A stretch of DNA of 63,961 nucleotides, the filler included, from Reclinomonas americana ATCC 50394 (lineage: Eukaryota): assembly GCA_048213135.1 (NCBI GenBank). It is 17 parts of 17 records of this genome, joined end to end, with 100 filler letters (N's around TTAATTAATTAA, not from the genome) between each part and the next. Parts side by side here need not be neighbours in the genome. Positions count along the whole stretch, not along the records: positions 1 to 2,768 come from AFZH01017799.1; positions 2,869 to 6,664 come from AFZH01017800.1; positions 6,765 to 8,297 come from AFZH01017801.1; positions 8,398 to 10,119 come from AFZH01017802.1; positions 10,220 to 15,192 come from AFZH01017803.1; positions 15,293 to 17,676 come from AFZH01017804.1; positions 17,777 to 20,764 come from AFZH01017805.1; positions 20,865 to 22,429 come from AFZH01017807.1; 9 more parts are not named here. One strand, 5' to 3'. The notes beneath the pieces are model-generated. The model was not told the origin of the DNA. It did no database searches and saw nothing but the letters and a program-made list of their open reading frames with translations. The position numbers were made by a program, and so were the translations under genes. Below, one piece after another: positions 82 to 50,349 of this stretch (position 1 is its first letter; every line of letters begins with the position of its first letter).

Positions 82-2880
82 TCGTCGACGGAAGGTGAGG
101 CGGCGGCTTCTGCGGCGCCAGTGGCGGTGTCTGTGGGTCCTGATCCGCTGCTGGAGTACCCGCCGGACGATGTGGCGTTTGTGCATTCGGTGCGGCCGCG
201 GCGACCGGGATCGGAGTTGGTGCCGCCCGTGTCGGCGCAGGAGTCGGAGGCGTTGCCGACGTTGGTGCGCGATTCGTTTGAGTTTTACCGTGCGCCGCGC
301 AAGCATCTGCGCCGGTTGCAGAGGCAGTTGGAGTTGGCCAATGTGCATCATGCGTATGCGAGGTTGAATTATGAGACGGATGAGGTGAGGATGGGGAATA
401 GTATAGGGGGAATGGAGGGGGGTGGAGGGGATAAGGGGAAGGGAGGGGGTGGAGGGGATAAGGTGAAGGGAGGGGGTGGAGAGGGGAAAGGAAAGACGGA
501 GGGTCATGTCTGTGGAGAAATCATGCGGTGTCACTCAATTGTTGCCTCTTCTAAGGTATCTGATCTCTCTCTCTCTCTCTCATCTGTTCGTGGAAGCAGT
601 CGTTTACGTCTTGAATGCGTCTCGTCGTTTGCGATGCTGTGGACCTTTCTCATGGTATTCTCTCTTTCTAAATCTCTTTCTCTCTCTCATCGCTTTCCAT
701 GGCACGCAGTTTTGCTCTGTTTCTCGCTCTTACCTCTGTCTTCTATCTGTCTATCAGAAATTGTTCACTGACACTGTGCTGTTTCCATTTTATTTGCTTG
801 GTCTCTCTCTCCCTCTCTCACTCTCCTTCTCACTTTCTCGCTTGCCTGTTCCTGCAAGAAATTGTTCAGTGATACTGTGCTGTTCTCGTTCTATTTGTTT
901 GGTGCTCCCCCCTCTCTCTCCCTCTCATACTCTCCCACTCTCCCACGCTCTCGCTTGCCTTTGCTTGCAAGAAAATGGTCCACTCTCGCTGAATGATTCT
1001 GTGCTGTTTTCGTTCTGTTTCTTCGGTTGCTATCGCTCCCCTTCTCCCTCTTCCCCTCCCTCTCCCTCTCTCTTTCTCCCGTTCTTGTCCCCCGTGCTCA
1101 ACCCTTTCCAAAATTGCAGGGCTTCGACACCCCCGACGTGGACCAAGATGGCATCCCCACCAGAAGACGCGGTCCTCGTTCCGGCGCCTCATCGGCCTCC
1201 ATTGACACACGTTGCGCCACACACACTCATTACTGTTTCCCCTTGCCACTGAAATCCCCTTCGCAGACCCCTCCCCCCGCGACCCCGCCGGCGACAGCCC
1301 CAGCTTGCGTGTCGATCTCGCCCTGCTGCGCTCATCGCTGGAGGACGTCGGCAAGGCGCAACCGCCGCCAGCGTACCGCGAGGCGGTGCTACCGACGCTT
1401 GCTCGTGCGGAGAATGAGCCATTTGATTGGGCGGGTGGTGCCGAGTCGCGTCTGTGCCGGCGGCAGGACAACCCTCTGTATCCACAAGAGTTGCGTGTGG
1501 ACGAAGCCTTTTATCTTCTCCTCGTCCTTGATGCTGACTTGACGTATCTCTCCAGTCGCGCCGCCCTGCTGATCGACGTGCAGGAGATCCGCTTGCTGCT
1601 GCTGAAGGATCACCCTGGCATTGAGCCCGTGTTCGGCTCGATTGCGCTGTTTGACATGTCGCGTGGTCGTCGCGTGTCGGAGAACTTGTACGTTGATTTC
1701 AATCCTGACTCGGTGCTGGAAGAGCACCTGCGACCGGGGCTTCCGATGGACCCAGAGACGCGCCTGACTGCCGGACTCCTGCGCCTGTCGGAGAACTTTA
1801 GCAATCTACACATTGTGGTCAAGGTCTTCAAGGTGCTGCACGGCGACGAAGAGAAGGCCGCAGAGCCGTACCTCCGCCCCGAGCGCTACGTGCGTCAGCC
1901 CTCACACCACCCGTCCCAATACTTTCCCTTCTCCCCCTCACCCCTCTCTCTACAGAACAAGGAAACCGACGTGCGCAAGCTGCGCGAGACGTGCCTGCAG
2001 TACTGCCGACGGCTCGGCAAGTACCGCCAGCCGCTGTGCTGGGCCTCGGCACAAGTGCACCTGCCCGACTCGATGTTTAGTCGGCGGCCCGGCGAGCGGC
2101 GACATGCGTCGGACGACGGCGATGCGACGACGGCTGAGATGGCCGGCATGGCGATGGATGCCATGACGCCGAATCCGGGCATTGAGGTGTCGTTTGACGG
2201 CGGCAGTCGCATGGCGTCGACCAGTCACATGATTAGTGCCGGCGGCAGTGCCGCCAGCATTGGTGGCGGCCCCTTCTCCATGTCCAGCATCAGTCGCGGG
2301 GGTGGTGGTGCTGGTGGCGCAGGAGGCGGAGCGCAGGGGTCGTCGGGCGATGGGATTGGTGTGGGCGAGCGCATCGATGTGCATGTGCGTGATTTTTACC
2401 GCTGCAAGGGCAACATGAGCGATGAGACCGTCATTGCGTTGATTCGGGAGAAGGTGAGACAGAGGGAAAGGGAAAGGGGGAGGGAGAGAAGGGAGGAAAG
2501 GGGGAAAGGGGGAAGTGAGATGGAAGAAGGAGAAGGGGATAGGAGGAGGGCAGAGAGGGGAAAGGAGAGAGGTGGCGATGGAGGGGGGAGGCAGAGAGCG
2601 ACGAGCAGGGAATGATCTGACGTAGGACTGCTTCTGTTGGAGTCTCTCATTTTGTTCGAGTGCTGTTCCTTTATTGAGAGAGAGAGAGACCGTGCTATTG
2701 GCGGAGTGGGAGTCAGGTTTTTGTAATGCGCCACAAGGCACAAGATTCTCTTTCCCCCCTGTGGTTGANNNNNNNNNNNNNNNNNNNNNNNNNNNNNNNN
2801 NNNNNNNNNNNNTTAATTAATTAANNNNNNNNNNNNNNNNNNNNNNNNNNNNNNNNNNNNNNNNNNNNATGTGTGTGTTG

Positions 2881-2953
<73 letters not shown>

Positions 2954-5900
2954 CGTGTGTGTCAGGTTTTCTTTCTTTCGCGAGGCAGTATCGTGAGAGT
3001 GCAAGTGATAGAATGGGGTCGCGAGGCAGTGTTCTTTGATTGCGAGAGAGGGAGAGAGAGTATGTATGTGTGAGCGTAAGAGTGCAAGTGAGAGAATGGG
3101 GTCAGGTGTGCCACAGTGCTCTAGATTCTCATATTCTATTCGCTTGAGAGACTGGCAAGAGTGATAGGCCTGCGAATCTTGTTTCTTTGGCGTGCTGAGA
3201 GAAGAAGAAGGGAATGATTTTGGAGTTGCGCCTCTCTCTTTCCTTTGGTTGGAGAGAGGAGGTGGGAAAGAAACGATGCGTAGCTCTGTCACTCTATTTC
3301 CGCGTTCTCTCTCTCATCCTTTCCGTATCAGCATGTGCTTTCCCACCTTCTCTTCCCCCTTTTCTCTCATTCCCTGGTCCCCTTGCTCAACACCCTCACC
3401 ACCACGCAGGAGGCTGAGGGTCAGCTGCGCCGTCTCAAGTCCGTGGAGGCCATGTGCTACATCCAAATCACCGACGTGCGCAACCTGCCATTCGAGTCTC
3501 ACAAGCCAAACGTCGTGTACTCGCCGCTGGCCAAGGGAGTTGCGTGGCTTCTTTTTGCGTCCTCTTGCGCCGCCAATCCCCTCATCCTCTCGCGCAGCAC
3601 GCTCGCGAGCTGCAAGAATTTGCCAGCGCATCGGTCGAGCCGACGCCGTATCTGTACTACAAGAACGAGTTGTTTGTGTATCCGGAGCGCGTGGAGTTTA
3701 GCGGCAACAAGGTCGGCAATGGTGAGCTTGCGAGGCACACGTCAAGGTTGTCGTCTGTGCTGCTCTGTGCTCACTCTTCCGACGCGCGTCAGTGTCCACT
3801 CGCAATGTCGCTGTGCGCATTCAGGTGAAGGAGGCCGATAATGACCTGTACGAGGAAGGCCTGCCGGTGCGTTCTTGTTGATGCTGTTTCCAGGAAAGCG
3901 TGCGCAGGAGTGACTGACATTCGTTGTTGCAGTGCATTGTCGGGCAGAGTGCATCGCAGTATCTGCTGACCGAGGCGTACACGCAAGTCACTTATCATGG
4001 TGAGCAATGGGCAAGAGAGGGAGAGGGAGAGGTAGAGGGAGAGGGAGAAAGAGAGAGAGAGAATGGGAGAGAATGGGAGGCCGGCGTCAAACGAGAAGCA
4101 AGCACAGAGACACCAAGAGTGGGAAAGGAGGAGAAATCGAGAGCGTAAATGAGGAAACGAGTGGACTTGTGTAAGAGGGAGACGATGATGGCTCTGGGCC
4201 AGTCTCAAACGAGAATCATGTATACGCCAGTAGGCGGGAAAGAGAAAGTGTGACAGAAGGTGGAAGAGAGATCAAGAAGCAAGATTGTAGCGATTTGGCC
4301 TGGGTAAACAAGAGACATTTACACACCCATGCCGCGCACGCACGCCGACATCGCCACAAAGTGAGAAGCGCATCGAACAGTAGGGAGCATGCAAGACGAA
4401 CGATAATGCAGTCTGGCTTCTTTCTGCCGACTTGCACGAACACGCATGCTTTGTCGGAGCGCTCACTGCATCTCTCCTCCTTGCAGAGAAACGACCGGAG
4501 TTTGGCGACGAGTTCCACATCCGCCTGCCTGTCAAGATCACTCCGAATCACCACCTGCTCTTCACGTTCTTCCACATTCAGTGCAAGGATGGAGGACGTG
4601 GTGGCACTCCGGTGGAGAGCATCATTGGTGAGTGTGCCACAGACAAGGAGAAATGGAGAACGGGAAAGTGATGGCCGAGGACGAGCTACGAGATAACGAG
4701 AGAGAAAGAGAGATATTCGCTGTCTGTGCTGCAAGATACGACCATTTTTTTGGAAGCAAAATAGTGGCACACAACGAACAGTATGCTGCAGCAGCCGCGA
4801 TAAGAAGTCAAAGCAGACGTCGATACCTCCTCGTTCTGTACTGGCACCTTTTCGCACTTTCACCATTCCCATTCGCCCTCTCCCATGTTCTTCTTCTCTC
4901 GTCTTCCTTTCCTTTTATTCCCCTTTCCTCTCTCTTTCCTCATTCTCCCTTCCCTCCGCCGCAGGCTACGCCGTCTACCCCCTCCTGGACCGCGACGACC
5001 GCGTGGTGCGCAGCGGCGTGGAGAACATCCCCATCGCCATGGGCGAAGACACCCGTTACCTCCGCTCCAACTCGCGACGCCTGCTCGACGGCGGCAAGGA
5101 GCTGTTCCGCTTCCGCACACAGTACGTGTCGTCGGTGTACACGGAGGACCGCACGCTCAACGACCTGCAGTCGTACATGGCGTTGGGATCAGATCCGCAT
5201 CACGTCAAGTTGCGACACTGAGTCTATATATTGCGCTCGCGGCTTGTCCTCTTTTGCTGACCGTCACGCAGGTCGTTTGTGACGCACCTCGACAAGGTCG
5301 CCATTATCGACCCCGTGAACATTATCCGCTACGCTCCGGTGCTTCTCAACCAAGTGAGTGTCACAATTTGTCCTGCAACATGTTGTGCCTTTTTCTCACA
5401 GTACTTCTTGCGCAGATGTTCTCGCTCCTCGACATTCAACACGAGGAGCTGCAGAAAAAGGCCTTCTTGTCCATTCTGCACATTGTCAAGCGCATTGACG
5501 AACGGACGTCCACCAATTCGACTGCCCGCAAGCCCATTCTGGATGCGTTTGTCACGTGCGTGTGTCGCGGGAGAAGGTCAAAGAAAGAGTGTCTTTGTTC
5601 ACTAACACTCGTCGCCGCAGACACGATTTGACAACGCATGGCTCTCCGCGCGTCGTCATGGTGCTGATGAAACTGTTCACTCGCTTCTGTCAGCATCTGC
5701 CAACCACAATGGCCAAGGATCAGGCCAGTCAGCGAAGCCGGTCGGCCACGGCGCAGCCGTCGCAGTCTACGGTTTGCATGCAGCCTTTGCGTGTTGATCT
5801 GTTTTGTCGCTCATCTATTACCATGCAGCAATCTGGATCCGTGCGCGGTCGTTCCACTGGTGAGTGGGGAATGGACAGGAAAAGGGAGAGGGAGAGGGAG

Positions 5901-6617
5901 AGGGGCAGACGATGGAGATGAGAGAGTCTCACACACTCACGTGCGTAAGCGGAGTGGTGGGGAAGTAGTTCATAGAGACGTCGAGGATCAGAGAAAGCGC
6001 GAGTGACGCGCAGGAAAATACACACGAAACTTGCACAGAGTGTGAGTGGAACGGGAAGGGAGAGGGAGTGGAATAGAGAGAACACAGAGAGAGAAGGGAG
6101 AGACAGAGAGAGAAGGGAGGGAGAGAGAGAGGGATACAGACAGCGAGAGAGAGAGAGAGAGAGGGTGAGAGAGTGAGAGGTTGTCGGGTTACGTGGTTCC
6201 CTTGTCCTCTAACACGAGTGCTCGCAGGCAATGCCAGCATCCTGGAACAAGAAGACCAGCCGCTGTGGAAGCGCATGGGTACCATTCCGTGGTTCATATT
6301 TGATTCGATTGTCAAGTCTCTCGCGCTCTTCTTGGAGCGTGAGGGCACTTTGCATGACGTTGCGTTGGTACTTCGCTTCCGCTGGAGTCAGCATGACTTT
6401 GCCTCATTCCCACAAACAGGAGACCGCTCGTACCTCACGTGTGCCCGACGAGTTCTACACACTGCTGCCGCAGTTGACGAACGCGATTGTGCATGTGGTG
6501 GAGAGTTTGGAGCCGTACGGTCGCAATGCCGAGTTGACCACCGTCAACTTTGCGTTGTTCCTGCGCGATCTGTTCCCGCTGTGCAACCGGTGCGTCACAC
6601 ATCTCTCTCTATCTCTT

Positions 6618-6664
<47 letters not shown>

Positions 6665-8112
6665 NNNNNNNNNNNNNNNNNNNNNNNNNNNNNNNNNNNN
6701 NNNNNNNNTTAATTAATTAANNNNNNNNNNNNNNNNNNNNNNNNNNNNNNNNNNNNNNNNNNNNGAGGAGGAGAAAGAAAGAAAGAAAGAGAGAGAGAAG
6801 GAAGAAAGGAAGGAAAGAAAGCTTGAGAGACAGCACTTGTGCTTGGTCTGTGACGAGGTGTGTATGAATCCTATCGCCGTTTCTCAACCGTTTCCCTCAC
6901 ACAGAGTGCCATTGCCGCCAAGTACCAGGGCGGTGCTGTGCGCGTCGGTGGAACTCTGCGCGAGAAGCGTGCCAACATGAATGTGCAGCGCTGTTGCGTT
7001 CCCTCACGATCTTGCCTTCTTCCCCGTCTGTTCTCCTTTGCCTCACCGCTCCTCACTTGCGCAGTCCAACGCGACACACCTCGCGGTGGCGCTGGCGCCA
7101 CGTCGTCCATGTCAGTCGGCGGCGGCTCATCATCGTCGTCGACGGCCGCGGCATCGGCAGCCCCCTCCGCCGCCTCCTCCACTACAGGATCTACTGTGGG
7201 CTTTGCCGCGGAAGAGGGCAGCACCCTGTATCACAGCAACCCGACGGCGGCGCTGTCCGGCATCAGCCTGCTGACGCGCACCATGTCGCGCGAAATGAGT
7301 CCGAATCGCAGCACCGCCACGTCGAATGTCGGCTCCAATGTCACGTCGCGCATGTCATCGCTGTGGGGACGACACACGCTCGACAAGACCACGCTGGATC
7401 TCATGGTTTGTGTGTACGTACTACGGAGTGGGAATTTGATGAAGTCTAAACTCCTTGTCGTTGTGGTGACAGACGCGCGCCGAGGGCCACCTGTGCGCCA
7501 CTTCCCACACGATTGTGATTGATTTGCTGACGGACTTTGTGGCTGACCATCGTGCGGCGCTGCTGCTGGATATTGACACGACGTTTGCGCGCACGCTGTT
7601 GGACACGCTCGAGTTGTTGATGCAGAGTCATCAGGTGAGTGGCGGATCAAATCATCTCCCTATGCGTTGTGCATCTCACTCTTGCTCTCTGTATCTGTCA
7701 GGCGGAACACGTGCTAGTGTACCTGGCCACCTTCCTGCGCTATTTCATGCGCGAATTCCGCCAAATCATCTTTGGCGAGGCCAACGTGGCATCCATGCTG
7801 TCGCACCAGCTGCTGCGGCACTGCACTGCTCGGTCGTCGGTGACGCGCCAGCACTTTGCCACGCTGCTGTACTTGCTGTTCAAGAACAACTACGAGGTGC
7901 GCGGTAACTTGGCGCGCACCAAGATGCTGGCCACGGCGGCGCTCTCGGAGCTCGTGCCCGAGTTGGAGGGTCGCCGCGATCTGGAGGACTCGTTCCATCT
8001 CATCACCGAGTATGCCGAGGCCGATACGACGCACCCCGTGTACGATCGCAGTGCGACTGGGCACGGCACAGTGGCCGTGGTGAAGCCGCAGCGCAGTTGC
8101 GTCTCGGATGCG

Positions 8113-8169
<57 letters not shown>

Positions 8170-8470
8170 GAGAGAGAGAGAGAGAGAGAGTAGTAGTAGT
8201 ACGTACGTTACGTTTACGTTTCGTTTCTTCTTCTACGTCGTCGTACGTACGTCGTACGTACGTCGTCGTCCGGTACGGTCGGTACGGTACGGTACGGNNN
8301 NNNNNNNNNNNNNNNNNNNNNNNNNNNNNNNNNNNNNNNNNTTAATTAATTAANNNNNNNNNNNNNNNNNNNNNNNNNNNNNNNNNNNNNNNNNNNNCGT
8401 ACGTACGTACGTACGTACGTACGTACGTACGTACGTACGTACGTACGTACGTACGGTACGTACGTACGTA

Positions 8471-8510
<40 letters not shown>

Positions 8511-11500
8511 CAAGAGAGAAGAGAGAACGGAGAATGGTGTTGAAATTGTCCTATTTCTTTTTGCCTCTCATGCAGCTCGTGATCGCCTGGCGAGTTACGG
8601 CGGCAGTGGCCTCTTGTCGGGCGGTCTGTCGTTGAGCAGTCTCATTTCGGGAGCGGTGGCCATGGGCGGCAACCACAGCAGCGACGGTGCTTCTGGCAGT
8701 GGCGACGGTCCTCCCACGCCCACCTCTATTGGCGGGGTTCGCAAGCGATCCAATCGGGTGGCGACCACGATGCCGGAGGTGTTGGCGCCACCGCACGAGG
8801 TGAGTCAGTTTTTGTGTGGGCGTTGACTGTGAGTTGGAGGCTGACACCGTTGTTGTGCAACAGCGTTTCTCGCGAGAAGATTTCCTGCAGAGTGTGCATG
8901 CGCTGAGTGAGAGGCTAGCGCAGATCTTGGTCAACACGTTGAATGTCCGCAGTTTGCAGCAGGTGAGTTGAAAAGGGGAAGGGAAATAGGAGAAGGGGTG
9001 AAGGGGGAAAGTGAGAGAAGAGAGCATTCGATAGGGAAGGTGGAAAGGGAGGAAGAAAGACAGACACTGTCTGTCAGATAGAAACGACAGCGAGTGAGGC
9101 ACTACTTGAGATAGCATCGTTATGTGTGGGATTGAGAGCGAGAGATATTGAGACAGTGTGTGTGTATGTGTGTGTGTGTGTGTGAGAGAGAGACATAGAT
9201 ATACACACAGAGAGAGAGATAGAGGAAGGGGAAGAAGGAAGAAGACAAAAAGTATATGCGAGGCGGCGAGGTTTTCGTGTAGAATAGAGGGAGAGAGAAA
9301 GAGAGAGAGAAAGAGTGAGCGAGCGAGTGAGCGCAAGCGCGGGAGGAGAGGAAGTGTCAGAGAGCAAGAGAGAGAGAGAGTGTGTGTGTGTGTAGGAGAG
9401 AGGGAGAGCATTCACGAAGAATCCGATGGATGGTGCGTTCGATGGAAAGAGAAATAGAGACGTTGGAAACACGGCAGAGAGAACGAGGAGCCGACGTTGA
9501 TTAGGAGTGCTAGAAAAGACGGGAAGTGGGGGATTGGAGGCGCTACTGTGAGGAGAATACTGCTGACCGTCCACTGTCAATCGTGAAACGTTTTGAGGCG
9601 AGAGAGATACATTGAGAGACAACGCACATGTTTGTGAAAGTGAGGGAGAGAGAGAGGGGGAGAGTAAATACGCAGGAGAGACAGGAAGGCTGATACTCTA
9701 ATCGTGTGAACTTTCTTCTCTCCTCGTTGCTGACACCTCCCGTGTCGCAGAAATGCGCCGAGCCCGAACGCATTGCCGAAATCTACTATCGCATTTCGGA
9801 GAGCTATTCACATGCGCCGCATCTGCGCGTCACATGGCTGCAGAATCTGGCCCTGTTCCACGAAAAGGTGGCGAGCGTGCTCTGCACCCTTTTCTCTCCT
9901 CATGTGGTGCTCACTCTTTATCCCGGTGCAGAACAAGGCCTGGGCCGAGGCCGCCATGTGCCACGTGCACATTGCGGAGATGATTCTGCTCTTCCTGCGT
10001 CACGTCAACTCGCCAGTGGTCCGCGATGTGCCGCTGGAACTGCTGTACAAGGTCGCGCCGGTGCTCAAGGCGTTGCCGAGGGTGAGTGGAGTGGTGAAGG
10101 GGAAAGGGATAGAGGAGGGNNNNNNNNNNNNNNNNNNNNNNNNNNNNNNNNNNNNNNNNNNNNTTAATTAATTAANNNNNNNNNNNNNNNNNNNNNNNNN
10201 NNNNNNNNNNNNNNNNNNNAGCGCAGTTGCCTTTCACTCACTTCTTGTGTTTGGTGTGTGCGATTGGTATGCTCTGCGGAGGCTGCATGATTGAGAGTGT
10301 GAGAACGGAAGCGAGTCAGATTCCTGTTTCTCCTTGTTTCGCAGTTGCTTTCACTGGCTTCTTCAGTGTATTTGTGTCTGTGTCTTTCCGTCACTAGTAT
10401 ATGCAATCAGTGTGCTCTTTTGTGCTTGTGAGATTGACACGATTGGAGGGGGAAAGAATGAGTTCACTGTGTACAGGGATTTCTCTCTCTCTCTGTACAC
10501 ACGTGTTGTTTACTCAGACTTCTTGTTTCCCTTTAGACGGCATCTGTGAGACATACATTCGAGAGTGAGGAGATAAGAGAAGAAGCAGAAAGAGAAACTC
10601 TCGCCTTCTCTCCCAGTGAGTGCATTGTGCTGTGTGGAGGCTGCATGTACGAGAGTCACCGTTGCTAGTGCCTGCAGAGTATTCTCTGGCAATCACTCAC
10701 TCCTTCCCTTCCCCTTGTAGAAAGAGGAATGGAAGTCCGCTCTCGCCGCCAAGGACATGGAGGAGGACACCTTCCAGCACGCGCTCTTCAGTCAGGACGG
10801 CGAAGGATTCGTCGACACACTGAACAAGGCTGCCGATTTCATGGGAGCTGTTGCGTCCTCTCGTCTCTCCTTACCCCCTCATTGCAAGCGATCCGCTGCT
10901 CACTGCGTTGCGAAAAGGGCGAGTTTTTCGAGTTCGGCACCGAGCTCTACAAGTGTCTGGCACCCGTGTACGAGACACGGCGTGACTACAACTCCCTGGC
11001 TGAGCTGTACAGCAAGCTTTCGGTGTACAATCGCAAGATCGATCGCGCAGTTGCGACTGAAATTCCCTTCCATCACTTTGTTGTCTTTTTTCTCACGTCG
11101 CTGGTGTGCAGTTGCGTGAGCAAAATCGCCTGCTGGGCTCGTACTACTTTGTCACCTTCCATGGCGAGCTGTTTGAGGAGATGAATGGCGGCGAGTACAT
11201 TTACAAGTTGCCGAAGATCACTCGACTTGGCGATGTCACGGAGATGTTTGAGGTGCGTGAACAGAAGATAGCAGTGCGCATCTCTCATTATTGACTCACC
11301 CGGTGTGCGCAGCGTGCCTACGACGGCAATGTCACAATTGTGGGTCACAATACGAACGTCGCCGACATGCCCACCAGCAAGACACACGGCGTGATTCAGC
11401 TGACGTATGTGCAGCCGTATTTCACCCCCACCGAGAGTCTCCAGCGCATCACCGACTTTGAGCGCAACTCCAACATTTGTTGCGTCCTTTCATTTGCAAC

Positions 11501-12769
11501 GGCGTTGTTCTGGGCCTGCACGTGTGTTGACATGTCTCGCAGCGCACTTTGTGTTCTCAAATGTGTACTCGCAAAATCGATCGCGTGACGCACCGCTGGA
11601 GGAGCAATGGAAACGCAAGACGGTGCTGCCGGTGGACGGCGGGCATCACTTCCCCGGCGTGCTCACGCGCTTCCGCGTGGACACGGCGAGAACGGTGTGT
11701 GAGGATCCATGATGATGGTGTTGTCGAGGTGGTGATTGCTGACACGGGGGCGTCGGTGCGCAGCAACGGTTCGAGCTCACACCAATCCAGAATGCCATGG
11801 AGACGATTCAGACGCGCATCTCTACGCTGGCGCACCAGATTGCGCAGGTGGAGGAGAAGCACGAGGCGGGCGAGAATCCCAATTTGAATCCGCTGCAGAT
11901 GACGCTGCAGGGTTCTGTGTTGCTTCGTTGCGTAAGGAGAAGGGATATGAGGAGAAGGGATGGGAGGGGAACGGATGAGGGGAGAGGATATGAGAGGAGA
12001 AGGGAGAATAGGAGAAGGGAAGGGCGGCGAAGGGATTAGAGGGACAGGTAGAAGAGGAAAGGATGGAGAAGGGATGGGAGGTGATGGGATACGAGGAGAA
12101 GGGGGAGAGTGGAGGGAAAAGGAGATATGAGGACAAGAGACGGATTGCGAGAAAGAAAGCATTTGTCGATTGTTTTTGTACAAGAGAGGGGGAATGACAC
12201 GTGCTCTGAGTGAGTGTGAGATACGATGGAGGAAGGAGCATCTACGCACGCACGTTATTTGATGAGTCTGCTGGAATGAGAGATGAAGAGCGGTTCGTGT
12301 TCATCTTGAGAAGACACAAGTGCTTGCTTGTGGTTGTGCGTGTGATAGAGTGAAGATTAGTATGGCCGGCAGCGGTCGGTGCGCTTGTGTATGCTTATGT
12401 GTGCGAGCGAGTGACAAGACAAGACGAAGAGTGTGTCCATATTCATCTCACCCCCATCTCCACATCCACGCAGAGGTCAATGTGGGCGCGCAGGAGATTG
12501 TGCGCACCTTCCTCACCAATCCGGAGCGCTTTGCGGCGGAGCACGTGGCCGAACTGCGCAACCTGCTGCGCCAGTTCTTGGACGCGTGTGACTTGGGCCT
12601 GACGGTGAACGAGCAATTCATGCCGCAGAACTCGGACTTTAGGAGAGAACTGCGCGACGGCTACGCGGAGCTGAGCCAGTTCTTCCAGCCTTACCTCGTG
12701 GACCTCTCGCCGCCGACCGCTCAGCCATTGTCAATAGCCACTGGCGATGGCGCCGATGTGTTCTCTTGA
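82..12769 (+). CDS. DOCK-family (DOCK-C/D, zizimin/DOCK6-11/SPIKE1-like) Rho/Rac/Cdc42 GEF; about 31 introns, 5' end outside the window
   Basis: Spliced exons give the N-terminal LLEYPPDDV motif, C2/DHR1 segments (IEPVFGSIALFD; YKNELFVYPE; PEFGDEFHIRLPVKITPNHHLLFTFFHIQC) and a DHR2 (SYSHAPHLRVTWLQNLALFH; EAAMCHVH; RLLGSYYFVTFHG; IQLTYVQPYF; QWKRKTVL; PIQNAMETI; LQMTLQGSVLLQVNVGAQE). Stop TGA ends at 12769. Confidence 0.93.
2769..2868. other. Artificial scaffold-gap linker (N-run + TTAATTAATTAA + N-run); first of 16
   Basis: The same six-frame-stop linker recurs near 6665, 8298, 10120, 15193, 17677, 20765, 22430, 28078, 33613, 44748, 49149, 50814, 53225, 61057 and 62751, usually next to low-complexity repeats. 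Confidence 0.97.
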
Positions 12770-12855
12770 TGTGTGTGTTGACGTGAAACAAATTGTTGTA
12801 TAAAAAATTCGGAGAAAAGATTAGTTAAAAGGAGTGGATTGATTGCGGTGCTCGT

Positions 12856-28595: not shown

Positions 28596-31500
28596 ATGGC
28601 CTCCTCATCCGCCGCACCTCACCACCATCATCGCCACCACCACCACCATCGCAACCTCGACGACGTCGACTCCTCCGCCACCACCACCACCATGCTTCTC
28701 GCCGACGACGACGACGACTCTATTCCCATCTTCCTCTCTCTGTACAACAGCTGCGGTCCTGCCGCACCCGCGACGCGCATCCGTGTCCTCTCGCACGCCA
28801 AACACATGGCCGCGCTCTTGCTACTCGACGAAGACAAATTGTCGACCGCATCGTCATCCTCGTCACAGTCGTCGTCGTCGTCCTCGGCGGCGTCCTCTGA
28901 CGCTGACGATAACGCCACCACGACAACGGCCAACGATGCCGACGTTGACACGTTGGTCGAAGGCGCGAAAGCAGCGGTGTTGGGGGCGACGGAGTTGACG
29001 GAGTCGAGGAGGCGCACACGTGGACATGTCGGCGATCCCGCTGAACTGCTCGCGGTCACGCTGAGACAGTTGCGCTGTGCTGTCTGTCTCTCTCTGTGTC
29101 CTTTGCGTGTTCTGATCTGTTTGAGGTGCAGTGGTGAGCGGTTTGCGACGATCTTGCGGTTGCCTAATCCATTGGCGTGTGGGTGAGTCAGCGTGGCATT
29201 GTCCTTGAAAGGGAACGGGGAAGGGAAGGAGAGTTGTCTGAGGGAGAGGGGGCGAGAGAGGAATGGGAGGAGAAGGGCAAGAGTCGCGCGATTCTCCTTT
29301 CCCCGATCGATCATCGATTGCTCGTTCTCCTTGATCGCTCGTCGATCGCTCTCTCTTCCTTGTCGATCGCTTGAGCAATCTCGTTGTCGATCGCTCACTC
29401 TTCCTTGTCGATTGCACACTCTTCCCCACCCACCGCTCACTGTCCCTTGCTCCACTTGTTCCTCTGTGGCTTTGCTCCTCTGTCGCCTTGCTCCTCTGTG
29501 GCCTTGCTCCTCCTCTGTCGCTTTGCTCCTCCTCTGTCGCTTTGCTCCTCCTCTGTCGCTTTGCTCCTCCTCTGTCGCTTTGCTCCTCCTCTGTCCCTTG
29601 CTCCGCTTTGCTCCTCTGTCGCTTTGCTCCTCTGTCGCTTTGCTCCTCTGTCGCTTTGCTCCTCTGTCGCTTTGCTCCTCTGTCGCTTTGCTCCTCTGTC
29701 GCCGTGCTCCTCTGTCGCTGTGCTCCTCTGTCGCTTTGCTCCTCTGTCGCTTTGCTCCTCTGTCGCTTTGCTCCTCTGTCGCTTTGCTCCTCTGTCGCTT
29801 TGCTCCTCTGTCGCTTTGCTCCTCCTCTGTCGCTTTGCTCCTCCTCTGTCGCTTTGCTCCTCCTCTGTCGCTTTGCTCCTCCTCTGTCGCTTTGCTCCTC
29901 CTCTGTCGCTTTGCTCCTCTGTCGCCTCGCTCCCTTGTCCCTTCTCGATCTCCCTCCTCCTTCCCCTTCGCTCACTCCCCCCTCAGCCTATCGAGCAGCG
30001 ACGGCGGTCTGCTGCGCTTCGAGATCGCCGCCGAGAAGCGCAAGGACGAGGACGATGGAGAGGAGGCGGACAGCGATGTCGAGTCGTCGATGGTGGCTGA
30101 GTTTTTGGTGAGCTCAATGGATCCATCGCGACCGCCGGCCTCGTTTGTGACTCCCATTGTGGCGCTGGAAGTTGAGTAGTGGAGAGAAAGTGGCAAGAGT
30201 ACGGACGGTCTCTCACTCTCCCTTTCCCCTTTCCCCCTTTAGCTACTGCGCTTCCGAAAAAACCTGATGTACGGCCCGCTGAAACTCAAGCTGGTGCCGG
30301 AGACCAACCTCTGGCCCTTCTCCTCCTCGTGGGTGACGATGGAGTTGCAAGGAGCACACATGGATCGCCTCGTGCCGCTGCTGCGTGGCCCTGGCGTGCA
30401 ACCAGCCGTCGTGTCCTCCATTTTCCGTCTCTTCCAGTCGCACCAGCACAAGCAGCAACAGCAGCAGCAGGCGGCGGCTAATCGCCCTCGCATTCGCGTC
30501 TCGCTGGACTCGAATGTGCGACGGCGCGACATTATCCGCATTCACGATCCACCACCCGCCGACTCATTCTCTTCGCCGTCGGCGTCGCTGGCGGCGTCAG
30601 GGGTGGTGAGTCGGCGCGGCATGACACCTGTGCTGCTGCTGCGACCACCAGCGGCGGCTGCGGCGGCGGCTGGTTCTGCGGCCAACTCGGCACGCGATTC
30701 TCGTCCCTCGTCGACCACGTCGAGCGAGAGTGGAAGGAACTCGACGCCGGAGCACCGCATGAGTCTGGAGAGTGTGCGATCGGGTGTGACCCACCTCAAG
30801 CGGCTGAACGTCAGCGATTTGCGAATAAGGGTGGTTGGCGTTGGAGGTGAGTGCGAGTTTAGTGGTGGGCGAGATGTTTATGATTTTGCTGATGTGTATT
30901 TGTGCAGGCGAGGATGTCGTGAAGCGCGAGACCGCGCTGGCAAGACACATGATGCGGGAGGTGCCGGGCGTCACATGCCAGTGTGCGAGCGAGGGATTGT
31001 TGCGTCTCGTTTCTGATTGTGTGCGTCTTTCACTGTCGCTGGTGCTCTATCGCTGTTGTTTTGTCGCTGTGGCTCCTGTCGCTGTGGCTTCTGTCGCTGT
31101 GGCCTCTGTCGCTGTGGCTCCTGTCGCTGTTGCTCCCTGTCGCTGTTGCTCCCTGTCGCTGTTGCTCCCTGTCGCTGTTGCTCCCTGTCGCTGTGGCTCT
31201 GCCTCTTTCTTTTCTCATCTTTCCCTCCACTCCTCCCTTCTTTCCCCTTGCTCACCATGTCTTCCCTTTTCCCCACCACAGTGCTGACACGGACTGCGAC
31301 GTGGTGGTGCTGGCCTTCTCGGCTGTGAACACCGACTCGCTGGTTGACGATCGCGCACAAGCCTTTCGCCAGCTGCGCGGCACGGAGGGCTCCGCCATGC
31401 GCCCACTCCCAATCGTGTCGGCGTTGATCTTTGACGGCTTGTCGGAGGATGTGTGCGCGGTGTTTGAAGCGTCGGAGCGCACGCGGCAGGAGATTCAGAC

Positions 31501-32703
31501 GGCTCTCGACCGTGTATGTCCGCGCAGCGGTGAGTCTCTCTCCCCATCCCTCACCTTTCCTCTCTTCCCATTTCCCTCCGCTCACCCTCCTCCGCAGACC
31601 ACTGGCGCTCGCACTTTGTGGACCCCACACCCGTGGTGGTGCCCATGTGCGCCGACTCCCAGGCCGCACCGACCCGCACGCACTCGCGGGCCATTCTGCG
31701 TCTCCTGCAGCAGTGCGCCAAGTACGCGCTGCGACCGAGTGCACCTGTGGCCGTGGCCGCCGCCGCCGCCTCCTCGGCCTCGTTGCGACATCGCCGACAG
31801 CGTGGAGCAGCCGCAGCAGCTGCCGGCGGCGGCACTGGCAGCAGTACCGCCAGTCACAGTGGCGGCAGCAGTGCCGGCAGCAGCAGTCGCCACGGCTCCA
31901 TCTCCGCTCCGGCCAGCTCATCCACCGCGCAACAGCAGCGACAGCGGGCAGTGGTCAAGGCTTCGCGGGCGGCGGCCGCCACGATGGCCGTGCCGCGCAG
32001 TTTGCCGGCCTCGGTGGCCTCGAGCAGCAGCACCTCGCAGAATCCCTCCACACCCGTGTGGGTGTCGCGGCCCTCGGCCTTTGACCAGTACGGCCGGCCA
32101 GTGGAGCTGTCGACCGTGGCCTTGCATCTGTGGTGCGTGGCCGAGGAGGACCACTGCCTGCGCTCGGCGCTGCTGTCGCTGCGTCGCTTCTGCGTGGCAC
32201 AGAGCTGGCGCATGTCGGCCATGAAGCGCACGAGTCCGGCCGTGGCCGTGTGGGCCCATGTGCACACGGCCGCCGAGCTGCGCGAGGGTCCCTCCGACAT
32301 TCCCGTGCGTTTCCCCATCAACTCGCGCCACATTCTGTGCGCGGAGCGCGGCGGCGCACGCTGCCTGCTGCTCGGCGCCGACGGACTCTTCACCGGTCTC
32401 GTCAACCACTACCTCCTCCACTCGCCCGTCTTTCTCTACGTCCGCGTGGCCGATGGCGGTGGTGCTGCATCGGCGGCCGCTGCCGCGTCTGATGACGCGC
32501 CACGACAGCCGCCGGCAGTGGAGCTCGACTGGACGCCACTGGGTCGGTTGGTGACCACCGCCGGCGAGGAGGGCACCGAGGCCGAGCTGAACGCCGCCAA
32601 CCGATTCTGGAGTCGAGTGGTGGTCGACACGCTGCCGCAGCTGGCGAGCGGTGGTGGAAGCAGTGAGCAGGTTGCCGAGGAGGATGATCGGGAGTGCAAG
32701 TGA
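28596..32703 (+). CDS. Hypothetical multi-exon protein, possibly with a degenerate small-GTPase-like segment
   Basis: ATG at 28596; introns inferred at 29069, about 29183, 30171, about 30848, 30999 and 31530 join open frames, ending in TGA at 32703. No confident family. Confidence 0.7.
29460..29935. repeat. Intronic minisatellite, 16/19-bp unit GCTCCT(CCT)CTGTCGCTTT
   Basis: About 25 near-perfect tandem copies. A related CTGTCGCTGT(G/T)GCT array lies at about 31060-31200 in another intron of the same gene. Confidence 0.92.
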
Positions 32704-33354
32704 AGGGTGGAAATTTGATCAGAGGGTCAGAGGGGCGCCGAGTGGATTCTTCTTGCCAGATACCACTGATGGAGAGTTGCCGTTTTGCTCACCAGGGTGG
32801 TATGTTGCCTGCTTGTTCATGTGTCGAGCACGGCGGCGTTTCCTACTGCAAATTGGCCGACTTCGAAGACATGTTCCTCTGCATGGAGGCGACTGTTTGC
32901 ATGGAGAGGTGAAAGCCTTGTCAGCAGGCCGCCTGCCGACATTGACGTCGCTGTATTGAGGCAACTGCCAGTCTTTGCTTAATCGTGACACAACGGTGGA
33001 AGCCCTGTCTTGGCCACAAGATCAGCTTCTTGCCTGTTTGCAATCATCTCTGCCCCTATTTGGAGGCCTTTGTTTCCCTCTTTGCGTAGTCGTGGCACAA
33101 GAGTGGAAGCCTTATCTGCACTCCTGGTGGGCACATGAGCAGCTTCTCGACTGCCTGCTAAGTCTGATATCAACTTCGAAGCTCTCTGCCGCTGTTTGCA
33201 GGCAGTTGCTTCCCTCTTTGCACAACAATGATGCCAGTGTGTCTTGGCAATTCAGGCAGCTCCTACCTTGCACACGAGGAACGTCACACTCGAGAGACAA
33301 GTGTCCTTCCCCCTGCGTCCTGCTCCTCTCTTTTTCCAGTGTCTCTGAGGGGGA

Positions 33355-35559
33355 ATGGGCAAGGTCGCTGCAGTGAGTGTGTGTTGTGTGAGTGGCTTTC
33401 TGCTGAGAGTGTCTCTGTGGATGTTCCTCGGCGGGTATGACACGTGTCGCGAGTGGTTTGGAAGGAGCTATGTGCTCTCCAATGCCTTTGTGGAGAGTGA
33501 AAGACGTGAGTTGAGGGAGGAGAGGAGGGAGAGAGAGAGAGAGAGAGTGAGAGAGAGAGAGAGAGTGAGGAGGGAGGGAGAGAGTACTTGTCTGTGTGTA
33601 CGTGCATGCTANNNNNNNNNNNNNNNNNNNNNNNNNNNNNNNNNNNNNNNNNNNNTTAATTAATTAANNNNNNNNNNNNNNNNNNNNNNNNNNNNNNNNN
33701 NNNNNNNNNNNTCTCTCTCCCTCTCTCCCCTCTCTCCTCTCTCCCTCTCTCCCCTTCTTTCCCCATCTCTTCCCCTCCTTTCCCCTTCTCTCCTCCCTTC
33801 TCTCCCCCCTTCTCTCCTCCCTTCTCTCCCCCCTTCCCCCTCATCCTTCTCATTCCCCTCTCCCTTCACAGTCATCGAGGCCTCCGACATGGTTCTCCGC
33901 CACGAATCACCATACTCTGCGGCCTTCTTCCACGGCCCTCCACTGCTGCTGCACGCGTACACCACCGTTCGCCAGCTGCTGCCCAACGCCGAGTTGGCCT
34001 TCCTTGTCATCTACTCGCTGCTCGATGCACTCGGTGCGTGGTCGATTGCCTCTGCCGTGGCGTCGGTGCTTCGCCGGTGCGACAAGGAGGAGGAGTTGCA
34101 TGAAGACAGGCTGAAGAAGCACCGTCAAGTCGCGGTATTGGCTGCTGCATGGTGGGTGGAGCGATGCGATCTCGGTTCCCTTGCTTGTCCTTGTCTCCTT
34201 CATCTCGCGCTCTATAATTCCTTTCTCCATTCCCTTTGCTCTTTTCGCCATCTCCCTTTGTTGTTGTGCGCCCTCTCCTCGTTCTCGCTCTCCTCGCGTT
34301 CACTTTTGCATTGCCTCTGTCGTTTACCTCTTCCATCCTGTCGTGACAGTGGTGCAATCGAAGAGAAACGAGAAGTAATGAGACGAGGTTTGAACCAGGG
34401 CATGCGAACAGAAGATTGAGGCCGGAGGAAGGAAGAGCGACAAGAACAAGCAGAGAACAAGCTCACAGATCTCCCCCTTTCCCCCCTCCCCTTATCTTTC
34501 CATCCCTGCTCCATATTCCTTCCGCTTGCTCTTCCACTGACTGTTTTCTCGAATCTCATCAATCTCATCTCCTTCTTTCTCCTCTCTCTCCTCCCCTCTT
34601 TTCCCCTTTCCCCCCTCCCTCCCTTCCCCTTCCCTTCCCCATCTCCTTTCCCTTTTTTCCCTTCTCCCTTTTCCTCACCCTTTGCCTTTTCTTCCCCCTC
34701 GCGCAGCTACGCTCTCAACCCCGTGACCATCCTCTCCACCCTCTCCCTCTCCTCCACCACCCTCCACGTCTCGCTGACGGCCGCCGCTCTGGCCGTATCA
34801 CTGCGCGGCGCCCTGCACCTGGGTGCCGCGCTGCTCGCCACGGCCGCCTATTTCGGCCTGTATCCCGCGCTGCTGCTGCCGGCGCTGCTCCTGCTAGTGC
34901 CGACGTCGGCCTCGTGGTGTGCCACTCTGTCGCGCCGCCTGTCGACAACCGTGTGCTTTGCGTCGACGCTGACGGCGTTGCTGGCGTGGAGCTGGATCGT
35001 CACCGGCGGCTCGTGGGACTTTGTGCACAACACGTACCTGGCGCAGGTCGCGGTGGACGAGTTTGCGCCCAACGCCGGCGTCATGTGGTACGCCTACTCG
35101 GAGATTTTCGCGCCGTTCCGCCCCTGGTTCCACTTTTTCATGGCCGTGCATCCGGCCATCTACGTGCTGCCGCTGTGTGTGGCCTTTGCGCACGATGGAC
35201 CGTTTGTGTTCCTCGTGCAGTGGCTGCTGCTGGCCGTGCTGCGCACGGTGCCGAGTGACGTGGAGCTGCTGTCGGCGTTGATCCTGGTGCTGGGCTTCCC
35301 TGAGCTGCTGCGCAAGAATCGCGGCTGGTGGATCTTTATTGTGATCGGGAATGCCATTCGTGTGTGCATTGCGCCGGCACTGCACACGGGCTGGTTGCAT
35401 CACGAGACCGGCAACGTGAACTTTCCGTTCAAGGCCAATGTGGTGCTCGGCCTCATGCACATCATGTCGCTGGCACTGCTGTTGCGCGCCAAGTTGGGTG
35501 TGCAGGACGAACAGGAGGAGGCGGTGGAGGCGGAAAGAGGGGAAGAAGGGGAAAGGTAA
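33355..35559 (+). CDS. PIGU: GPI transamidase subunit PIG-U/Gab1
   Basis: Three exons give ...AFVESER|LIEASDMVLRHESPYSAAFFHGPPLLL, C|YALNPVTILS, LATAAYFGLYPALLLP, FAPNAGVMWYAYSEIFAPFRPWF and WLHHETGNVNFPF. Multi-pass membrane protein. Confidence 0.9.
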
Positions 35560-35617
35560 TGACAAGTAAACAATTCATTTTCGTTAAAGAGATAAAACAC
35601 GGAATGCACACACACAA

Positions 35618-38600
35618 TTAGGGAGCCGGGCTGTGTGGTTTCAGCACCTCCTGCCCGCACGCACTGTGTTCCAAGTGCGCAAAGAGGCGCTCCACAGTCG
35701 AAAATGCCACTGCACACATGTCGCAGCGGTACACCGAGTCGGAGCGCGCCAGAGCGGCTGCCGCAGCGACAGGTGGTGCCGGCTGACGCGGTGGGTGACG
35801 CGGTGGCATTGAGCGGATCGAATCGGCTTCATCGTCCGACATGCACTCCTCCGTGCTCAGCGCATCGTCGCGGTCCCTCCTCGCTGGCGGTTGCGAGGGC
35901 GGTGAACGCGCGGCAATCGACGCCGGCGGCGACACGTCCAACCGTGGAGGCGGTCTCGATGCGGCCTGTGCCGGTGCAGGAGCAGGTGGTGGCGATTGTT
36001 GTTGCTGCTGCACTGCCGCTCGTGGTGCGGCAGATACTTCGGTGGGACGCGCCATCATCGGTGGCTGTGGGTGGGAGGGTGGCGGAATGGAGTTTGGTGG
36101 GCGCGATGCGGCGGCGGGCAGGAACGGAGCTGCTGCCGCTCGTGCCGACAGCGACGACGTCACATCGAGCGACGGCAGTGAAGGCATGGAATCGATGCTG
36201 TCGGCACTGTCATGGCGTCGATTCGCCGCCGCCGCCGTCGCAGCCGCTGAAGCTGCTGCTGCTGACTGCGCTGATGTTGGTTGAGCTGGTATGCCTGGAC
36301 GCGCTGGCGCTCCTGCCGCCGCCCTGCCCGCTGCGACTTGTGAGGGGAGCGGCTGAATATTGGGAATCGGGCGAATAATGTTGGTGGGCGGTGGGCTGTT
36401 GCCCAGCAGCGGGCGCACACCAGATGCCAAGCCAGCGTAGGCGGGATTGCCGCCAGCCACGCGTGGCGGCAAGGCCATTGGGCGCACCGGCGACACGGCG
36501 GCACCGGGTGCCAATTGACCGCCTGGCAGCCACATTTGCGGTGGGGGGCGCGCGCTTCCCGACCCTGCTGCGCCGCTGTTCATTCCTGTGGCCGACCCGC
36601 CCGAATTGAGCAGCGGTGCTTGTGGAGGTCTCGGTGGTGGTGGCGACGGAATGGCCATTCGACCACCCATGTCTGTGCGGGTAACACGAAAGAGTCAACA
36701 AACCAGCAGCTCGTAGAATGTAGGCAAGCAGCTCACGTACCAGCATCATTGGCCGACGGACGTTGAGGTGGTGGACTGGCGACACCATCGAAGCGCCGCG
36801 GAGCCATGAGATCGGACGAGAGTGGGGCCGGCGGGTGGTGATCACTGGGTCCGGCGTCTGGCAGATCACGCAGACGGAATTCACCACCGGCGACCTGCGC
36901 GTCGACAGCGCCTCCACTCCCACTGCCGCCAACTTCCTCGTACTCCTCGATATCATCGTCACGCTCAGCCAAGAACACGTGCTCAAGCAGCTGACGCGCT
37001 GTTGGCCTCTTGGCGGCATCACTGGGAAAGAGAGACAGGTGAGCGATGAATGACAGCAGCACGCCTACAGCAAGACGCAACGGTGTGAGACACAGGCGGA
37101 AGAACTCGTGAGCTTCGGTCGAAAATGGCGCCGGCAAGGTCAGATCGGCCACCACGCCGGTGCCGATGCGCCACAAAATGGCCAGCTCGTTGCTGACTTG
37201 CGCAAACGGCTCCTCGCCACGTGCCATCTCGTACATCAAGCAGCCAATCGACCAAATGTCGGGCGAGCTGTGGCGGAACAGGGTGAGGAGGAGAACCGAG
37301 AACAGAGCATCGCGAGAGTGACTCACACATCGTGGTATGCTTGGCGAATCATTTCCGGCGACATGTAATGCGGCGTGCCCCGCAACCCCGACGACGATCC
37401 TTTGTCTGCGACGGATGACGGCTTCTCCAGCGACGCATTGCGTGAGCTGGCGGCAGCAGTGGCGGCAGCAGCAGCGGCGGCGCTATTGAGGGCCTCGGTG
37501 AGCTGCGTGCGCAAGACTGTGTCAGGAATGCAAACACAGAAAGAAAAGCAGTCGAGCGCAAGCACACCCGTGGCGAGATGGGAGGACTCTTGGAAGCGGC
37601 GGCGGCGGCGGAGGCCGAGTTGCGACGGCTATCTGGCGGCAACAGTTTGGAGGCACCAAAGTCGGCCAACTGCAAGCAATAAAGTCAGCTCCTCTCCCCC
37701 AGCACCACAAAGCTTTTACCCTGAACATGCCTTGGCAATTCCATTATCATCAATGAGCACGTTGGCGCCCTTGATGTCGCGGTGGATAATGTTGTGGCTG
37801 TGCAAATACGCCAAGCCCTTCAACACCTGTCGCATGTACACGCGAATGGTCTTCTCATTCAGGGCGCCCACACGGCGCACAAGCGACGAAATGGATCCGC
37901 CCGGCACGCGTTCCATGAAAATGTTGAGCACGTCGCCACGGCGCTCCGTGGCAATGTACCTGCATTGTCACACGTTGAGCAAACTGCAATGATCAAGGAG
38001 AGGGGAAGAGAAAAACGCACCGCACAATGTTCGGATGATCGAGCTTCTTCATCAGCGAAATCTCGCGCTCCAGCATGCGCACCTCGTCCTCTGAGTTCCG
38101 CTGCTTCAAGTCGAGCTGCTTGACGGCCATCAAGCGACCGCTGTCCATGTCCAGCGCCAAGTACACCTTGCCAAAGGCTCCCTCACCCAGTGTGCCGGCT
38201 GCGCAAATTCAATGAGTACAAAGCACGCGGGTTGATCGACGGCGACAAACTGACCTTGTCGCCAGTGCAGACCGCCACCGGGAGCGCACACCTTGCGTTG
38301 CACCAGTTGCCGCTGACGAGCCGATCGGTGAGAAAACATTGACAGTGGCAAGTTGAAGAGACGACGAACACGCAAACCTCTCCGACTTGCGGTGCTGCAG
38401 CAGCGGCGGCACCAACAGCAACGTCGTTCATCTCGTCGACGCGAATGTGCATGGTGATGCACGCGAGGCCGTTCTGATCGTAGTAGTCGATGCACCGGCG
38501 CCAGTCCTGTATGCAGAGAGAGCAATGAGTTTACAGAAAGTGGAAGACTCATACACAAGCGCACAATACCTCATCGTTGAGGATGGGTAGGCGGTGGTTT

Positions 38601-44612: not shown

Positions 44613-44662
<50 letters not shown>

Positions 44663-45022
44663 ACTCACTCACCTTCCCTCGCTCCTCACTCACTCACTCA
44701 CTCACTCACTCACTCACTCACTCTCTCTCTCTCTCTCTCTCTCTCTCNNNNNNNNNNNNNNNNNNNNNNNNNNNNNNNNNNNNNNNNNNNNTTAATTAAT
44801 TAANNNNNNNNNNNNNNNNNNNNNNNNNNNNNNNNNNNNNNNNNNNNAAAGAGAGAAGGGTAGCGTGGGAAGGCAAAGAGAGAGTGTACAAAGGCAGAGA
44901 GATGAGAGAGAAGGATGAGAAGACAGGGAGAGAGAGAGAGAGAGAGCAGGGAGAGTGGGCAGAAGAGAAAGAGGGAGACAGAGAGATGGGAAACAACCCG
45001 CCCTATATTCCGCCCACGCAAC

Positions 45023-50349
<5,327 letters not shown>

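Follow-up and report, generated by a model that had tools for sequence, protein, structure and literature searches.

Nuclear DNA of the eukaryote Reclinomonas americana ATCC 50394, represented here by a window of 63,961 bases (the whole stretch of DNA that was analyzed), carries two kinds of 5' splice site, or donor: ordinary ones and a class that begins with GTTGCG. We find that N|GUUGCGU, the bar marking the cut, is a real and abundant GT-AG donor class in this genome, with intron borders that obey both the GT-AG rule and the reading frame. The exon-side composition of these donors is moved by one base, such that the last exon base (-1) behaves like the -2 base of ordinary donors. The most likely register in which U1, a small nuclear RNA (snRNA), pairs at these sites is one nucleotide out of the usual one, and U1 itself is probably altered in sequence, the latter being the weaker claim of the two. 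For the combination of a real donor class, U1 pairing shifted by one base, and a U1 in which nucleotide 5 is probably G and nucleotide 6 perhaps C, we see an even chance. The broader proposal that a shifted U1 register is a main splicing mode here, serving a quarter to a third of short introns by way of a changed U1 or a second U1-like snRNA, is offered as a doubtful one.

The window consists of 17 contigs and 16 linkers of 100 bases, with about 55% GC. Introns in it were called by a purpose-written semi-Markov gene finder, trained unsupervised on the window itself and built from an order-2 three-periodic model of coding sequence, a composition model for introns, an acceptor matrix, and a bonus for branch motifs. 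Its donor model covers intron positions +1 to +9 only; exon positions -1 to -3 lie outside the donor score, and the test of the -1 base is therefore not circular. All counts refer to this one 64-kb window, with introns called mostly ab initio. A single, unseeded donor matrix gave 99 complete introns, 71 nucleotides (nt) long at the median, and GTTGCG was their commonest donor hexamer (19), followed by GTGAGT (16) and GTGCGT (9). With a two-component donor model there were 105 complete introns, the same hexamers heading 24, 19, and 10; among the weaker donors that fall outside the main types (42 of 112) there are surely errors. Branch motifs read CTCAC, CTCAT, or CTGAC, not CTAAC, and lie 15 to 30 nt upstream of the AG. 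CTCAC is found in 36 of the 99 introns, where 7 would be expected, and the branch A is some 16 nt away from the 3' splice site.

The two strands together hold 62 copies of GTTGCG, against 42.9 +/- 6.0 in shuffled sequence, and no shuffle reached 62. The finder called 24 of these sites as donors, and three more (1490, 23679, and 42100), with good intron and flank scores, were added from a per-site table. These three had been read through because the length of each intron is a multiple of three and there is no in-frame stop; the intron at 1490..1555 has a branch-like CTGAC and a flank coding score of 13.8. The class accounts for 27 of 115 predicted donors and, of the 73 complete predicted introns no longer than 110 nt, for 22. 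A branch motif, a pyrimidine tract, and an AG follow downstream, and removal of the introns restores the reading frame (Table 1).

Homology supports four of the 27 introns, those with donors at 46678, 37081, 11050, and 11479, and the other 23 rest on ab initio calls. In an m-AAA protease, the Walker A motif is interrupted by 21 extra codons whose ends coincide exactly with the predicted borders of the intron from 46678 to 46616. When the kinase gene is aligned to solved structures of MAP3K5, the match ends at donor 37081, and removal of 60 nt restores the kinase subdomain XI motif together with its spacing. A DOCK homologue (P0132) is contiguous across 11050-11111, the residue spacing holding only with 62 nt removed, and its residues 1927 and 1928 fall at 11477 and 11542 in the alignment, a spacing that needs removal of the intron at 11479..11542. 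The m-AAA protease alignment also stops at 45032, near donor 45022. The intron that begins at donor 8096 may be longer and extend across a contig gap.

The base in front of the cut sets this class apart. An earlier note on this DNA, written by a model from the sequence alone, had described A before GTTGCG at about 13 of 25 sites between positions 1489 and 45023, G at only two (23153 and 39966), C or T at most of the others, and G before most normal donors. Exact counts bear this description out: within that range the -1 base is A at 13 sites, C at 5, T at 5, and G at the same two, and over all 27 donors of the window (1211 and 46678 lie outside the range) the tally is 13 A, 7 C, 2 G, and 5 T. 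Among the 63 non-GTTGCG donors with G at +5, by comparison, -1 is G in 51 and A in 2 (Fisher's exact test against GTTGCG, p = 4e-11 for G and 9e-7 for A), and the 46 donors of the form GT[GA][ACT]G[TAG] have G in 35 and A in 2 (p = 6e-9). The comparison of -2 and -1 frequencies between donor classes that the note had proposed, run here within the window, gave a difference at both positions. Codon phase was considered as a cause and rejected: the phases stand at 8/8/8 in the first 24 sites, and a test aware of codon position stays significant, with 4.9 A expected and 13 observed (p = 3e-4) and 8.9 G expected and 2 observed (p = 2e-3). In phase 0, A fills the third codon position at five of ten sites, although A makes up only 10.5% there.

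What distinguishes the two exon profiles is a displacement. The -1 profile of the GTTGCG class resembles the -2 profile of ordinary donors (A/C/G/T of 13/7/2/5 versus 30/10/8/15; chi-square p = 0.63) and is unlike the ordinary -1 profile (p = 3e-10). Scored over -1 to -3 of the GTTGCG donors, the ordinary profile moved by one base has a log-likelihood of -105.6, against -142.8 unmoved and -114.6 for background, a lead of 37 and 9 log units, respectively. At -2, A drops to 6 of 27, from 30 of 63 in ordinary donors (p = 0.03). Donors of the type GTTTGT or GTTYG, which share GTT but have G at +5, keep G at -1 in 9 of 10 cases, and six looser GTTG or GTTA variants have it in none; G at -1 therefore follows the position of the anchoring G, +5 as opposed to +6.

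The intron side is displaced in the same manner. T at +3 and G at +6 belong to the definition of the class, and +7 (18 T, 6 C, and 3 A among the 27) resembles the ordinary +6, where T has a frequency of 0.67; the consensus is thus moved by one base. Among the 9 GTTGCG sites without U at +7, 7 have A at -1, compared with 6 among the 18 with U there (p = 0.046), a trade-off such as would be expected if both bases belong to one helix. The heptamer is tight as well as displaced. C at +5 is nearly invariant, with 27 GTTGCG donors to one GTTGAG, and the GTTG donors with other bases at +5 and +6 number three with TG, one with CC, and that one with AG. Ordinary donors have GTRAG in 27 cases and GTRCG in 14, a ratio that contrasts with the 1 to 27 of GTTGAG to GTTGCG (p = 6e-8).

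Pairing energies were computed with the U1 5' end given for human U1 in Table 2 of PMC4856993; this standard end is ACUUACCUG, with ACUUAC in its recognition part. The earlier note had looked to a comparison of register 0 with register +1, and with the standard U1 the shifted register turned out to have no clear advantage. Mean energies for the GTTGCG class are -0.24 kcal/mol in register 0, -0.47 in the shifted register, and -0.39 with +3 bulged, against -7.85 kcal/mol for ordinary donors, and for most of the class no stable duplex is predicted at all. Stable pairing in register 0 or in the bulged register is predicted for just two sites, 23153 and 39966, those with G at -1. A different U1 changes the picture. 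In a scan of all 64 combinations of U1 nucleotides 4 to 6, judged by the binding of both donor classes above that of random GT sites, ACGCAC ranks first (-7.33 for the GTTGCG class, -9.22 for ordinary donors, and -5.43 for the control) and ACGUAC second. With ACGCAC, two example sites, 45022 and 37081, are predicted to adopt the shifted register, G+1 pairing with C9 beyond a 1x1 loop.

In the arrangement that we infer, U1 snRNA would pair with GTTGCG donors one nucleotide out of its usual register. G+1 would lie opposite C9 of U1, U+2 would be unpaired opposite C8, and U+3 to U+7 would face A7 to A3, with exon positions -1 and -2 opposite U10 and G11 and cleavage still in front of GU. A -1 base opposite U10 would therefore be mostly A and almost never G. 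For such a helix to hold, U1, or one U1 gene, probably carries a G as nucleotide 5 and perhaps also a C as nucleotide 6 (ACGUAC or ACGCAC in place of ACUUAC). G at nucleotide 5 would in turn make +5 nearly always C, and it would stabilize both the GTGCGT and the GTTGCGT donors of this window.

Several results weigh against shifted pairing or against the altered U1 that goes with it. A plain shift predicts that GTTGAGT should be at least as common as GTTGCGT, and the counts are 1 and 27. With the standard U1, the shifted helix, at the mean energy given above, is better than the other registers at only 9 of 27 sites, and in free duplex folding the class reaches -1.19, worse than the -3.08 of 300 random GT sites. 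G at -1 should help through the bulged register too, and its rarity is for that reason not forced by thermodynamics. The 35 GTTGCG sites not called as donors have A at -1 in 10 cases and G in 7; the GTTGCG donors show relatively more A and less G than these, as elsewhere, but the difference falls short of significance (Fisher p = 0.18 and 0.28). Finally, donors rich in C at +4 occur with a standard U1 in Thecamonas and the Mamiellales, according to the account in bioRxiv 10.1101/2022.06.08.495308, such that an altered U1 is not a necessary consequence of C-rich donors.

The mechanism proposed in the earlier note, a recognition frame that slides by one nucleotide as cleavage stays at GT, is thus partly supported, the observation behind it being confirmed. 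For the sliding frame speaks the exon-side signature moved by one base; standard-U1 pairing favors no register, and C at +5 is left unexplained by it. Cleavage at GT agrees with the GT-AG rule, the reading frame, and exact homologue spacing in four introns, evidence of a kind other than RNA; for the introns at 46678 and 37081, worked by hand, a cut one base further at both ends gives the same protein.

Two classes of donor could also be served by two snRNAs. A second, dedicated U1-like snRNA, with a 5' end complementary to GUUGCG(U), would read the class in the ordinary register, and this would suit a consensus far tighter than that of ordinary donors. When U1 nucleotides 3 to 7 are left free, the best binder of the class is a CGCAAC variant at -9.18 kcal/mol, with G+1 opposite nucleotide 8, that is, register 0, in all 27 sites; variant U1 snRNAs are reported in humans. 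With C9 kept, register 0 nevertheless calls for G at -1, a base seen at only 2 of 27 sites, and the -1 data therefore argue for a U1 that has G at nucleotide 5 and forms a shifted helix rather than for a CGCAAC snRNA in register 0. The exon-side profile fits a one-base shift, and the class shares its branch motif, length, and composition with ordinary short introns. We regard a dedicated snRNA as unlikely.

Equally unlikely, in our judgment, is that U1 plays little role at these sites and that the heptamer is read by a protein or only at the later U6/U5 stage, with the aid of intron definition across very short introns. The standard U1 5' end is predicted to pair more weakly here than at random GT sites, as this would have it, and the class is confined to short introns, with 22 short and 1 long, compared with 12 short and 13 long for GTRAG donors (p = 3e-4). 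Another contact could then lie behind A at -1, U5 loop 1 being an example. A fixed contact with the exon should, however, keep A at -2, where it drops to 6 of 27, and the association of A at -1 with U at +7 suggests that one helix covers both.

Less likely again is pairing in the ordinary register with U at +2 or +3 bulged, in which GU(U)GCGU would be read as GUGCGU. For human donors, a register with +2 or +3 bulged is documented in the Figure 1C legend and Table 3 of PMC4856993, and the GTTGCG class, with its extra U after GU relative to GUGCGU, resembles the sites of this kind (Roca et al. 2012; Tan et al. 2016). GTGCGT, moreover, is a common ordinary donor in the window and found mainly in short introns, like the GTTGCG class (GTRCG donors head 10 short introns and 2 long ones). 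The bulged register is contradicted because it leaves -1 opposite C9 and yet G at -1 is nearly absent: GTRCG donors have it in 11 of 14 cases and the GTTGCG class in 2 of 27. Its energy with the standard U1 is no help either, with a gain only at the two sites that do have G at -1.

Descent from a mobile intron family (introners) with its own donor and insertion-site preference would account for one uniform donor heptamer and similar lengths across many introns. This origin was rejected as highly improbable, there being no similarity between copies beyond the splice signals: the mean local alignment score of intron interiors is 7.39 within the class against 7.66 and 7.72 in comparison. A comparison of 25 short GTTGCG introns with 25 ordinary short ones showed no difference in length (Mann-Whitney p = 0.79), base composition, or acceptors; the branch motif is present in 20 and 19 of them, respectively, at a median branch distance of 16. 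Unspliced sites produced by gene prediction are a thought that the 23 ab initio calls might invite, and one scarcely credible beside four introns supported at residue resolution, an enriched motif, the splice signals downstream, and a restored frame.

Among known systems, U12-type introns have the donor /RTATCCTT and a TCCTTAAC-type branch site, and their donor consensus is tight, purely intronic, and without a requirement for G at -1. The GTTGCG class is like them in its tight intronic consensus and in lacking that requirement. U12-type identity was ruled out, as the donor is GTTGCGT, the branch motif (CTCAC, CTCAT, or CTGAC) and its distance are those of ordinary introns, and the frequency is far too high.

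A closer parallel is the +1 shifted U1 register of human donors, demonstrated by Roca and Krainer (2009), as reported in PMC4856993. There too GU is kept as the cleavage site, the consensus is displaced, with G+6 and U+7, and -1 is not G; the model oligonucleotide in Table 2 of PMC4856993 has CA before GU. The shifted register is rare in humans, where all validated bulge and asymmetric-loop registers together make up about 1.5% of 5' splice sites according to that paper, whereas GTTGCG makes up about one quarter of donors here, as a tight heptamer with C at +5 that stands beside an ordinary class. The human model site also forms a long helix from +4 to +9 at -6.5 kcal/mol in that account, unlike the GTTGCG helix, for which the standard U1 gives a prediction of instability. 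With regard to the bulged +2/+3 register, in which G at -1 lies opposite C9, the near absence of that G again sets the class apart.

Co-evolution of U1 and donors offers a second parallel. The preprint of Roy and Bowser (bioRxiv 10.1101/2022.06.08.495308) gives Mastigamoeba a U1 with ACGUAC and GUGCGC donors, and Entamoeba a U1 with ACAAAC and GUUUGU donors. As in Mastigamoeba, donors here are C-rich where they would face U1 nucleotide 5. In both of those lineages, as described there, the register is ordinary and the consensus single, unlike the two classes found here, one of them out of register, with a U1 that is deduced from the donors. A literature search for a GTTGCG or GUUGCG donor class, which did not cover subscription journals, yielded primers and unrelated papers and found no description of one.

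These donors touch on the questions of how one U1 recognizes very diverse donors and of the extent to which cleavage can be positioned independently of the U1 helix. If shifted pairing is true, thousands of natural introns with a displaced register would form a large natural data set, and co-evolution of U1 and donors would be directly testable from the U1 genes of the assembly. For annotation, gene finders with a single donor matrix would leave about one quarter of the introns in this genome mis-annotated, with in-frame introns silently translated through.

Six short introns of the window are multiples of three with an open frame (1490-1555, 23617-23679, 37022-37081, 42044-42100, 45200-45259, and 46616-46678). 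Annotation based on open reading frames would translate through all of these, and four of the six were missed by the gene finder (1490, 23679, 42100, and 45259). The one at 45259-45200, an ordinary intron with AG before GTGCGC, was recovered by homology. Long introns (for example, 385-1119, 2454-3409, and 45999-46414) have mostly GTGAG donors and a purine-rich start of the GGGAGG type, followed by long CT-rich tracts. One of them, 45999-46414, was folded and showed no special structure (z-score, -0.96).

Table 1. GTTGCG donors and other features of the window, with the base before the cut and the basis of each call
Feature	Position	Strand	-1 base	Basis and remarks
GTTGCG intron	1211..1266	+	C	finder; weak coding support in flank, lower confidence; outside 1489-45023
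GTTGCG intron	1490..1555	+	A	per-site table; 66 nt, open in frame
GTTGCG intron	3539..3597	+	A	finder and per-site table
GTTGCG intron	5209..5271	+	A	finder and per-site table; after DOCK C2 exon
GTTGCG intron	6359..6419	+	C	finder and per-site table
GTTGCG intron	6993..7064	+	T	finder and per-site table
GTTGCG donor	8096..8188	+	A	finder; 3' end uncertain (GA repeat, contig gap at 8298)
GTTGCG intron	10850..10917	+	T	finder and per-site table
GTTGCG intron	11050..11111	+	A	DOCK homologue P0132
GTTGCG intron	11479..11542	+	T	DOCK homologue P0132
GTTGCG intron	13916..13976	-	C	finder and per-site table
GTTGCG intron	15721..15790	-	A	finder and per-site table
GTTGCG intron	20217..20286	-	A	finder and per-site table
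GTTGCG intron	22693..22776	-	C	finder and per-site table; acceptor uncertain, 22693 or 22633
GTTGCG intron	23083..23153	-	G	finder and per-site table; exception at -1
GTTGCG intron	23617..23679	-	A	per-site table; 63 nt, open in frame
GTTGCG intron	25638..25701	-	A	finder and per-site table
GTTGCG intron	25948..26020	-	A	finder and per-site table
GTTGCG intron	29069..29131	+	A	finder and per-site table; acceptor 29131 or 29125
GTTGCG intron	30999..31281	+	T	finder and per-site table; sole long one, 283 nt
GTTGCG intron	37022..37081	-	C	homology to solved MAP3K5 kinase structures
GTTGCG intron	38640..38704	-	A	finder and per-site table
GTTGCG intron	39901..39966	-	G	finder and per-site table; second exception at -1
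GTTGCG intron	41343..41406	-	C	finder and per-site table
GTTGCG intron	42044..42100	-	T	per-site table; 57 nt, open in frame
GTTGCG donor	45016..45022	-	A	finder; intron enters contig gap 44748-44847, no acceptor seen
GTTGCG intron	46616..46678	-	C	m-AAA homology; outside 1489-45023
Candidate GC-AG intron, donor GCGCTT	12381-12473	+		gene finder call
Candidate GC-AG intron, donor GCATGT	37670-37730	-		gene finder call
DOCK-C/D gene	82-13254	+		Pfam, exons spread over range
Intron-less gene, PhnB / 3-demethylubiquinone-9 3-methyltransferase domain (PF06983)	18573-19031	+		E = 7e-33
WD40 exon, single, 1305 residues	55483-59397	-		Pfam
Long open frame, low-complexity T/S/G/V-rich repeat with LTVSGVTTLGG-like unit	62851-63960	-		no Pfam match

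The window is eukaryotic nuclear DNA. Its contig joins (for example, 2769-2868, 6665-6764, and 44748-44847) consist of N44, the 12-base six-frame stop linker TTAATTAATTAA, and N44, and genes such as DOCK run on across them with correct order and orientation. Pfam was run on exon translations, and 25 of the 55 matches were listed; beyond those in Table 1, they include an m-AAA (FtsH/AFG3) protease, a gene with ZZ, armadillo, and kinase domains, PIG-U, and Stealth domains. Best protein matches are distant, at 52-60% for the m-AAA protease, 30% for PIG-U, and 37-45% for DOCK over full-length matches, and one orphan gene has a single protein match. The named matches are spread over Heterolobosea, Andalucia, Mastigamoeba, and Chlorokybus, with no close relative among them. 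ESM Atlas gave no usable match, and the sole candidate for related DNA, a metagenome locus (L001), was rejected as spurious, as it lacks a DOCK match and has 44% GC. The intron-less PF06983 gene, with a domain that is mainly bacterial, may have been acquired from bacteria.

An Rfam scan of the window gave no family at the gathering threshold, and at E <= 1 it gave microRNA look-alikes driven by repeats and no snRNA. Between 17777 and 18396 lies a perfect (TACG)155 array of 620 bases with 100% matches, followed by (GA)20; it is open in six frames, gives spurious microRNA matches, and may be either a genuine microsatellite or a product of faulty assembly. In the WD40 exon, the N-terminal 770 residues have no family among the best 25 of the 55 Pfam matches, and the C-terminal half holds at least 10 very regular WD40 repeats.

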